In this document: positions 22,322 through 24,545 of the stretch, piece by piece
Position numbering within the stretch: position 1 is the first letter of the stretch
Layout of the letters: every line of letters begins with the position of its first letter
Virus record (IMG/VR): IMGVR_UViG_3300026097_000805
Coordinates: 96,001 to 160,000 of that record
Reading direction: 5' to 3' (one strand)
Origin: a virus
DNA length: 64,000 bases
Notes under the pieces: model-generated
What the model saw: the letters and a program-made list of their open reading frames with translations, nothing else
Told to the model about the DNA's origin: nothing
Database searches by the model: none
Program-made: the position numbers and the translations under genes

Positions 22322-22360
22322 AAAAAAAAACCTTCCTTGCTGTGTGCTTGGAAGGTTTTT
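22322..22360 (-). terminator. Intrinsic terminator of attenuator B
   Basis: AAAAACCTTCC-N13-GGAAGG followed by T9. Confidence 0.9.
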
Positions 22361-22384
22361 GGAATCTTGTTAGCTAATGCTCGC

Positions 22385-22474
22385 TTACGTTCCGCAACCC
22401 TCCAGGCATAGACTACCCGCTGGATTTTCCGATCCAGGTGTCCATGTATCTAATGTGAGTACGAATGTAAACAT
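22385..22474 (-). CDS. Leader peptide B (29 aa, MFTFVLTLDTWTPGSENPAGSLCLEGCGT)
   Basis: Translated by hand; AAGGA SD, GATAAATA motif upstream, includes the antiterminator 5' strand. Confidence 0.8.
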   Translation of the reverse strand: MFTFVLTLDTWTPGSENPAGSLCLEGCGT

Positions 22475-22563
22475 TGAAAGTTTTTTCCTTATTAACTATG
22501 CATTTATTTATCATCTAGATAAAAAACACGCACATATTGGCTTATTTTTGGAACTTTGCTGTG

Positions 22564-23612: not shown

Positions 23613-23962
23613 TTTATATCCTCTCTATACCATCCAGTATTGTATTCATCTACAATGTTTACATTATTTACACGATCATAACGGAAACTGCGCCATCCTT
23701 TAGCATTTACGTCCCATACACTCACAACAGCATCTGAGACTTTTCGAACAGCTTTTTGAGTCATAGGATCTTTCTTAGTTGCTGGCGGTTTCATGTCTTC
23801 ACGCAAGGTACAGGTCATAACACGCTTGTCACCGTCTAATTTAGTAAAGTCAACTACGAGCACATTTTGTTCTAGTAATCTTTCTAAATCTTCACGTACA
23901 GGAATACCTTTGAGTGTTGCTACTGTCTCAGCGACTTGAGACGACTTTATCTGCGAATCCAT
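23609..23962 (-). CDS. Small SH3/WYL_2-like phage protein
   Basis: [15 protein letters not shown] and VWDV...GWRSFR motifs. Confidence 0.55.
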
Positions 23963-24545
23963 TTTCTACTGCTTCCTCTGCTGTTAAGAACGTATCAAAC
24001 TTCATAGTTTCAAACAGTTCTTCATAAGACTTGTTTGCTGTGTTGTGTTTAACATACAGCTCTGTAAGACGCTTGTTGATCTTCTGCGACTCTTCGTAAT
24101 GACGTTTTGCATCTTCAAACTGTAGCTCTTGAACATGCACACTGCCACTTGTACCTGGAGTACCTGAGCTTACACGATGGATCATCGTACGGCTTTCTGG
24201 CAATACAACTCGCTTTCCTGGCGTGCCTGCTTGTGCAAGGAACGAACCCATTGAACATGCTTGGCCCATTACAATAGTGCGTATATCGGGCTTAATAAAC
24301 TGCATAGTGTCGTAAATAGCAAGTCCTGCTGTGACAGCGCCTCCGGGCGAGTTAATGTACAAACTAATTTCTTTGTCACTGTTTTGACTTTCTAGATATA
24401 GCAACTGTGCTACAATCAAATTGGCCATATTATCTTCTACTGGACCGTTCAACATCACAATACGGTCTTTCATCAATCGGCTGTAAATATCGTATGAACG
24501 TTCGCCGCGACTTTCTTGTTCTACTACCATTGGAATTAGTGGCAT
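23928..24545 (-). CDS. clpP: ATP-dependent Clp protease proteolytic subunit
   Basis: [22 protein letters not shown] (catalytic Ser), MIH (catalytic His). Confidence 0.95.

Follow-up and report, generated by a model that had tools for sequence, protein, structure and literature searches.

A leader ORF that lists the codons of a downstream tRNA array in a large uncultured phage: a candidate attenuator ahead of the array's own promoter

Leader-peptide attenuation is textbook biology for amino acid biosynthesis. The enterobacterial attenuators (the trp, his, phe and leu leaders and the multivalent thr and ilvGMEDA leaders) combine a short leader ORF, an intrinsic terminator and an antiterminator that shares a strand with the terminator; their stop codon places the ribosome over the antiterminator strand, and codons of more than one kind are sensed. 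The unit described here, termed unit B, is drawn to the same plan. It differs from the enterobacterial attenuators in that the genes downstream encode tRNAs rather than biosynthetic enzymes, that its leader holds about one codon for each of 11–12 tRNA species, where theirs have runs of one to three kinds of codon, and that a strong independent promoter lies between the terminator and these genes.

Control of this type can also be directed at the decoding apparatus. In E. coli, the Phe-rich leader of the pheST attenuator controls phenylalanyl-tRNA synthetase. Both pheST and, as drawn, unit B are leader-peptide attenuators that tie the output of part of the decoding machinery to how much charged tRNA is available, but pheST senses one amino acid, has a protein-coding target and is not found in a phage. 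The T-box leaders of Gram-positive bacteria bind one uncharged tRNA directly, without translation; there too the state of the tRNA pool sets the choice between terminator and antiterminator, whereas in unit B the ribosome would be the reader and many tRNAs would be polled at once. With regard to the controlled genes, a cryptic long tRNA array in cyanobacteria is induced under translational stress (PMC8421152). Like the array behind unit B, it is an accessory tRNA array, and its expression rises when translation is impaired in cyanobacteria; unlike that array, it lies on a bacterial chromosome, and the text of the paper mentions no attenuator, leader or terminator. Full-text literature searches found no published description of leader-peptide control of tRNA genes.

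Anatomy and relatives of unit B

The window analysed here is a stretch of 64,000 nucleotides, comprising bases 96001–160000 of a 179,647-base IMG/VR virus record that is estimated to be about half complete. All features of unit B and of the tRNA arrays discussed below lie on the minus strand (Table 1). Two arrays were identified. Array 1 encodes, in order, tRNA-Asn, Ser-GCU, Gly-UCC, Thr-UGU, Leu-UAG, Pro-UGG, Ala-UGC, Gly-GCC and Met and, after a gap of ~300 nt, Ser-UGA, Asp and Glu, and is the presumed target of read-through from unit B. Array 2 encodes Trp, Ile, Tyr, Lys, Gln, Cys, Met and Phe. Unit B is a paralogue of attenuator A, the unit ahead of array 2, and stands at the head of array 1. 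The two share the same building plan and the same upstream A/T-rich motif, both have codons that match their own array, and both belong to families conserved in the same relatives.

Table 1. Positions of unit B, its neighbours and its homologues. Coordinates are those of the window or, where a locus is named, of that relative.
Feature	Position	Strand	Remarks
2OG-Fe(II) oxygenase gene	23160-22564		upstream neighbour of leader B
Conserved upstream region of unit B	22520-22480	minus	
9-nt A/T-rich motif	22512-22504	minus	common to the attenuator A promoter spacer
Shine-Dalgarno-like AAGGA	22490-22486	minus	11 nt before the leader B start codon
Leader ORF B	22474-22385	minus	predicted ORF; 29 codons plus stop codon (22387-22385)
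Checklist core	22450-22409	minus	codons 9-22
Small hairpin in the core	22437-22420	minus	fold; 6 bp, -5.8 kcal/mol
Segment 2	22408-22389	minus	antiterminator 5' strand; last 7 ORF codons; ends 2 nt before the stop codon
Segment 3	22365-22346	minus	contains the terminator 5' arm; partner is segment 2 (antiterminator) or segment 4 (terminator)
Intrinsic terminator	22360-22322	minus	stem 22360-22326, -15.3 kcal/mol; nine-U run ends at 22322
Array 1 promoter, sigma-70 type	22301-22273	minus	perfect -35, 17-nt spacer, -10 5/6 (11/12 overall)
Array 1	22202-20839	minus	12 tRNA genes; ARAGORN
Attenuator A promoter	20795-20767	minus	
Attenuator A leader	20729-20652	minus	
Attenuator A terminator	20627-20598	minus	followed by the 8-tRNA array
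Array 2	20565-19932	minus	8 tRNA genes; ARAGORN
Leader B homologue	L066 2449-2538		unit also on two further contigs
Leader B homologue	L195 7225-7320		
Leader B homologue	L084 3310-3405		two further copies
Leader B homologues	L088, L209, L210		

The leader ORF begins 90 bases past the oxygenase gene, and other genes in the neighbourhood encode a WYL_2 protein, a ClpP homologue, a metallophosphoesterase and an ATP-dependent DNA ligase. We found no close relatives among cultured phages, as a DNA search matched single tRNA genes only, and the neighbouring phosphoesterase shared at most 55% identity with proteins of cultured phages. The ClpP homologue is full-length (window 23928–24545; Pfam E = 1e-64), and the window also holds a phage-encoded tmRNA gene (58692–59076) with a 13-residue tag. 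Together with the tRNA arrays, these genes suggest a heavy investment of the phage in translation quality control.

Relatives were reached through the phosphoesterase gene (54 IMG/VR loci, several of them with tRNA arrays) and then by motif searches, in which the leader-A motif, the small hairpin and the closing-helix motif recovered the family. The 2OG-oxygenase gene, used as a search seed, led to four distant contigs, none of which carried tRNAs; a direct search with the back-translated core pattern gave no matches; and a metagenome scan with a hairpin-based pattern yielded chance matches only among the matches listed (at least 120 stretches).

Six IMG/VR relatives (L066, L084, L088, L195, L209 and L210) carry leader B, with 28–31 codons from a conserved start, ahead of an array that begins with tRNA-Asn. 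Counting this phage, the seven leaders fall into three sequence lineages, one of which contains five of them. The lineages have in common a Thr-x-Gly-Ser-x-Asn-Pro stretch, the length of the ORF and the Shine-Dalgarno spacing, and little else; in the seven-unit alignment they align poorly outside the terminator. Unit B follows an oxygenase gene here and a WYL_2-like gene in L084, and still other genes take this position in L066, L209, L210 and L195. This makes at least four different upstream genes in all, which indicates that unit B travels with the array. Two further relatives, L136 and L144, share the array head but lack unit B: the upstream gene, in L136 a homologue of the oxygenase, is followed by a promoter, a boxA-like leader and tRNA-Asn.

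Several relatives contain additional ORFs around these elements. A conserved ORF of 15–18 codons, rich in Trp, Lys and Tyr and preceded by a strong Shine-Dalgarno sequence, begins directly after the terminator U-run of leader B in L066 (2605–2652), L088 and L209, and after that of leader A in L019 (1441–1497); it is absent from this phage. This ORF would be expressed only on read-through. In L008, an ORF at 301–610, near the end of the contig, lies directly upstream of tRNA-Asn, in the slot that other relatives use for the promoter and the boxA leader; by its Cys/His pattern, judged by eye, it looks like an HNH homing endonuclease.

Leader codons and the tRNA content of the arrays

The predicted ORF of leader B has a start codon and a ribosome-binding site, although the Shine-Dalgarno spacing of 11 nt is long, and on these signals it is presumably translated. 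An overlapping ORF of 33 codons in another frame (22514–22413) was rejected, as it is closed early in the relatives. The interval 22322–22520 had no match among Rfam families, and a candidate reading of the leader as a tRNA remnant was also rejected.

Codons 9–22, the checklist core, were found to be identical in sequence to the list given by an earlier sequence-only reading of this DNA, which had proposed that the core samples even the isoacceptors of the 12-tRNA array. Under standard, generic bacterial wobble rules, this proposal was borne out: 13 of the 14 codons have a cognate tRNA in array 1, and between them they reach all 11 of its elongator species, including both Gly and both Ser isoacceptors. 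The sole exception is the Trp codon, whose cognate tRNA is encoded in array 2, and the Met tRNA of array 1 is accounted for by the start codon of the leader. The regulatory codons therefore match the controlled genes and are concentrated in the leader, as single codons of many kinds and not as the runs of classical attenuators. Since each codon occurs only once or twice, the response to a shortage of a single tRNA should be shallow.

Leader ORF B ranked first in coverage of array 1 among the 654 ORFs of 20–45 codons in the six frames of the window, and leader A ranked first in coverage of array 2 in the same set. None of ~15,000 windows of 14 codons, taken from long ORFs of this phage, covered the 11 array 1 species. 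The sequence-only reading had itself cautioned that the amino acids concerned are common. For the ORF as a whole this caution is justified, as a random 29-codon gene stretch covers all 12 species with p = 0.02, but the core is exceptional in its density. Coverage by the whole leader was less significant for B (p = 0.013–0.07) than for A (p = 2e-4 to 5e-3).

Similar densities were found in relatives, for all of which the null was drawn from the genes of this phage. In L084, which represents an independent lineage, 12 of 12 species were covered within 14 codons (0 of ~15,000 windows); the corresponding values were 12 of 12 within 18 codons in L210 (p = 7e-5 per window) and 10 of 11 within 14 codons in L066 (p = 4e-4 per window). 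Whole leaders covered 12/12, 12/12, 13/13, 10/10, 10/11, 11/12 and 12/14 species of their own array in the seven phages. When the three lineages were pooled, strictly cognate synonymous codons were used at 36 of 50 informative positions against 27.5 expected (p = 0.007, with this phage's own codon usage as the null).

Within a phage, each leader was a better match to its own array than to the other one. In the five phages with both leaders, B covered 91–100% of array 1 and 33–56% of array 2, and A showed the reverse. A finer correspondence, in which the codons of leader B would track the isoacceptors present in each phage, had been suggested as a check by the sequence-only reading and failed to appear: the fit of B to its own array was 1.635, compared to 1.634 for the arrays of other relatives. 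For leader A, tracking was weak but visible (1.449 for its own array, 1.380 for those of other phages). Leader B codons did not follow tRNA gains and losses between phages. In the commonest lineage all five leaders retain a Tyr codon, whereas only L088 and L209 have tRNA-Tyr in array 1; a GCC-type Gly codon is retained where its tRNA is missing; and Arg-UCU in L195, Trp and Phe in L088 and Val-CAC in L066 are tRNAs without a leader codon. Between lineages, leaders and arrays agree to some extent: in this phage and in L084, leader B lacks a Tyr codon and array 1 lacks tRNA-Tyr, and in both phages the codon is located in leader A and the tRNA gene in array 2. The leaders therefore represent the core tRNA set of the family, and they change more slowly than the arrays themselves.

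Further observations concern leader A and related leaders. In L084, leader A (8736–8837) lists 13 of the 13 tRNA species of its array, in which three Arg tRNAs are matched by three types of Arg codon and two Lys tRNAs by two types of Lys codon; most of the last 13 codons of this leader are of the array-1 type. In L007 (1653–2120), a longer leader of 34 codons, with codons of the array-1 and array-2 kinds and 18 of the 20 amino acids, has its own promoter and terminator and stands at the head of tRNA genes for Asn, Pro, Trp, Tyr, Phe and Cys, with no promoter behind the terminator; the 270 nt before its tRNA-Asn hold tRNA-like T-arm remnants. In L210, the 87-nt spacer between tRNA-Ile and tRNA-Lys (2893–2979) occupies the slot of tRNA-Tyr in this phage and in L008. 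It was considered as a tRNA candidate and dropped, as neither ARAGORN nor Rfam recognised it; leader A of L210 still has a Tyr codon.

Alternative RNA structures and promoters

An intrinsic terminator lies between leader B and the genes presumed to be under its control, and the relatives have terminators in the same place that are stronger than the one in this phage, in which the G+C core of the stem (22355–22331) contributes -10 kcal/mol. The antiterminator proposed from the letters alone was recovered by an unbiased duplex search in a slightly longer form, the pairing of segment 2 with segment 3 at -19.5 kcal/mol. Folded as one strand, it reached -21.7 kcal/mol (z = -3.0), which exceeds the stability of the terminator, and the two structures are mutually exclusive. 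The small hairpin formed by the CTGGAT and ATCCAG repeats also folded as had been predicted, and its inner 4–5 bp are kept in all relatives. It may serve for pausing or timing, or it may simply be a by-product of the conserved Gly-Ser-x-Asn-Pro codons.

We then modelled the ribosome footprint at each codon in six variants of the unit. With the P site at or before codon 18–21, 9–11 bases of the terminator 5' arm were sequestered in all six variants, at a nascent dG of -18 to -30 kcal/mol; with the P site anywhere from codon 22–23 to the stop codon, essentially no arm bases were sequestered and the terminator formed. In silico, the antiterminator that excludes the terminator is thus freed by a stall and blocked by a ribosome at the stop codon. 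In this phage it is whole through P-site codon 18 and gone at P-site codon 22. The concern that the last cognate codons lie close to segment 2 proved well founded: stalls with codons 20, 21 and 22 in the A site (P-site codons 19, 20 and 21) left 9, 7 and 4 of the 15 arm bases sequestered, so these codons are only partly effective. Because the antiterminator fades over this interval, Gly-GGT, Ser-AGT and Leu-CTA would be poor sensors.

In every variant the last 7–8 codons pair with the terminator 5' arm, and when the 3' part of the leader was shuffled the pairing was lost (p = 0.000–0.012 per variant). The three lineages have three distinct terminator arms, each with its own matching leader end, and in L195 the leader end has been rewritten while its pairing with the shared arm is retained. 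This maintenance of pairing by different sequences in diverged lineages argues for continuing selection. When leader ends and arms were swapped among units, this phage, L084 and L195 paired best with their own arm; L066 and L210 did not. When the full transcript was folded at equilibrium, the optimum usually still contained the terminator; because of this, the model depends on the order of co-transcriptional folding, as in the classical cases.

Transcription could reach the leader by more than one route. A search for a sigma-70 promoter ahead of leader B in this phage gave no match of at least 9/12. The region 22520–22480 has the spacer motif of the attenuator A promoter with poor hexamers, and is at best a weak sigma-70 promoter; a good promoter at the equivalent position (11/12) was found in L084 only. 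L066, L195, L209 and L210 retain both the 9-nt A/T-rich motif and the Shine-Dalgarno spacing. Three copies of the motif lie on the minus strand of the window (22512–22504, 20786–20778 and 9989–9981), the third ~20 nt upstream of a gene that begins at 9960. The number of copies is not significant alone, as 13 of 100 shuffles reached three matches. The motif may be a phage-specific promoter element.

Array 1 has a near-consensus promoter of its own between the terminator and tRNA-Asn, and every relative with unit B has one to three such promoters (10–12/12) between the terminator and the first tRNA. A promoter upstream of the leader is therefore not the sole route of transcription into the array, and unit B can only add read-through; it cannot gate array 1. 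The sequence-only reading, which took the unit for an attenuator, named constitutive termination at 22322 among the outcomes that would speak against it. Even complete termination at this site would leave array 1 transcribed from its own promoter. Because this promoter follows the terminator, the regulatory leverage of unit B may be small. Attenuator A differs from unit B in these respects. A consensus promoter precedes it and none follows it, for which reason it can truly gate its array, and its codon statistics are stronger.

Array 1 is also flanked by a 27-nt inverted repeat (window 22237–22211 and 20834–20808, minus strand). The 5' copy opens with a boxA-like motif directly past the array promoter and a short hairpin, and the 3' copy lies just upstream of the attenuator A promoter; both copies are kept in L066, L136, L144, L195 and L209. 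The arrangement looks like an rrn-style leader–trailer helix.

Competing explanations and the proposed role of unit B

With modest confidence, we favour the interpretation that unit B works as a leader-peptide attenuator which adds demand-dependent read-through to the output of the array's own promoter. RNA polymerase would enter from the 2OG-oxygenase operon or from the weak promoter-like region ahead of the leader and transcribe the leader with a ribosome behind it. When reading is smooth, the ribosome at the stop codon would cover segment 2, the terminator would form and the transcript would end. A hold-up at any of codons 9 to ~19, each read by a different array 1 tRNA species, would leave segment 2 free to pair with segment 3 as it emerges; no terminator would then form, and the polymerase would continue past the array promoter and boxA-like leader and transcribe the tRNA genes. 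The strong promoter of the array would provide the basal supply, and unit B would act as a demand-dependent supplement rather than an on/off switch.

The unit could instead be an insulating terminator that ends the upstream operon and shields the tRNA promoter, the ORF serving to keep segment 2 covered by ribosomes, and termination thereby efficient, and its codons acting as no sensor. This is compatible with a terminator that, in every relative with the unit, precedes the promoter of the array itself, with the lack of a second terminator in the stretch from the 2OG-oxygenase gene to the leader, with the two relatives that do without the unit (L136 and L144), and with the failure of the leaders to track tRNA content on a fine scale. 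We nevertheless consider it unlikely. An insulator needs neither an ORF of conserved start and length nor a conserved antiterminator that is stronger than the terminator, it leaves unexplained why 11 of 11 or 12 of 12 array tRNAs are represented within 14 codons in two independent lineages, and it does not account for a unit that stays with the array whichever of at least four different genes lies upstream. Equally, unit B might be a decaying copy of an A-type unit which lost its promoter once the array had acquired rrn-style promoters, and which has no regulatory role. The upstream region does look like a degraded A promoter, with the same spacer motif and poor hexamers, the unit is missing from two relatives, the leader codons lag behind tRNA loss, and the related leader of L007 still directly heads an Asn-first array with no promoter between. 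Decay is hard to reconcile with an ORF, a Shine-Dalgarno sequence, a terminator and an antiterminator that are all intact in three lineages despite near-complete divergence outside the constrained parts, which makes this explanation quite improbable.

A product acting in trans, either the peptide of 29 residues or the ~150–190-nt terminated leader RNA, would make the likeness to an attenuator secondary. Leader peptides and attenuator RNAs that act in trans have published precedent (PMC7298713, PMC6614838), as in the Sinorhizobium trp leader, and the Gly-Ser-x-Asn-Pro stretch is conserved in all lineages here. That stretch coincides with the RNA hairpin, though, and outside it only the composition of the peptide is conserved, not its sequence; substitutions between close relatives stay among the amino acids served by array 1, and there is no known target. 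We give this explanation hardly any credence.

If unit B works as the attenuator drawn here, the phage gauges decoding speed at about 12 codons at once, in a leader of only ~190 nt, and answers with the matching tRNAs. This would bear on why phages carry sets of tRNA genes, and on how they cope with host tRNA loss or with defences that target tRNAs. The locus also carries a caution: the switch precedes an independent strong promoter, and to call the array 'gated' would overstate what the sequence supports. A broader reading, which we put forward tentatively as possible rather than probable, is that large uncultured phages have two-tier tRNA operons, in which a constitutive rrn-style promoter and boxA leader provide the basal level, and a checklist leader polls every encoded tRNA species in one ribosome pass and releases extra polymerases only when a codon is slow. 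Such slowing might follow, for example, from host tRNA depletion, from an anticodon-nuclease defence or from entry into a host with different codon usage. If this is true, these operons would constitute a viral feedback loop in which the ribosome measures the tRNA supply and the tRNA genes are the output.
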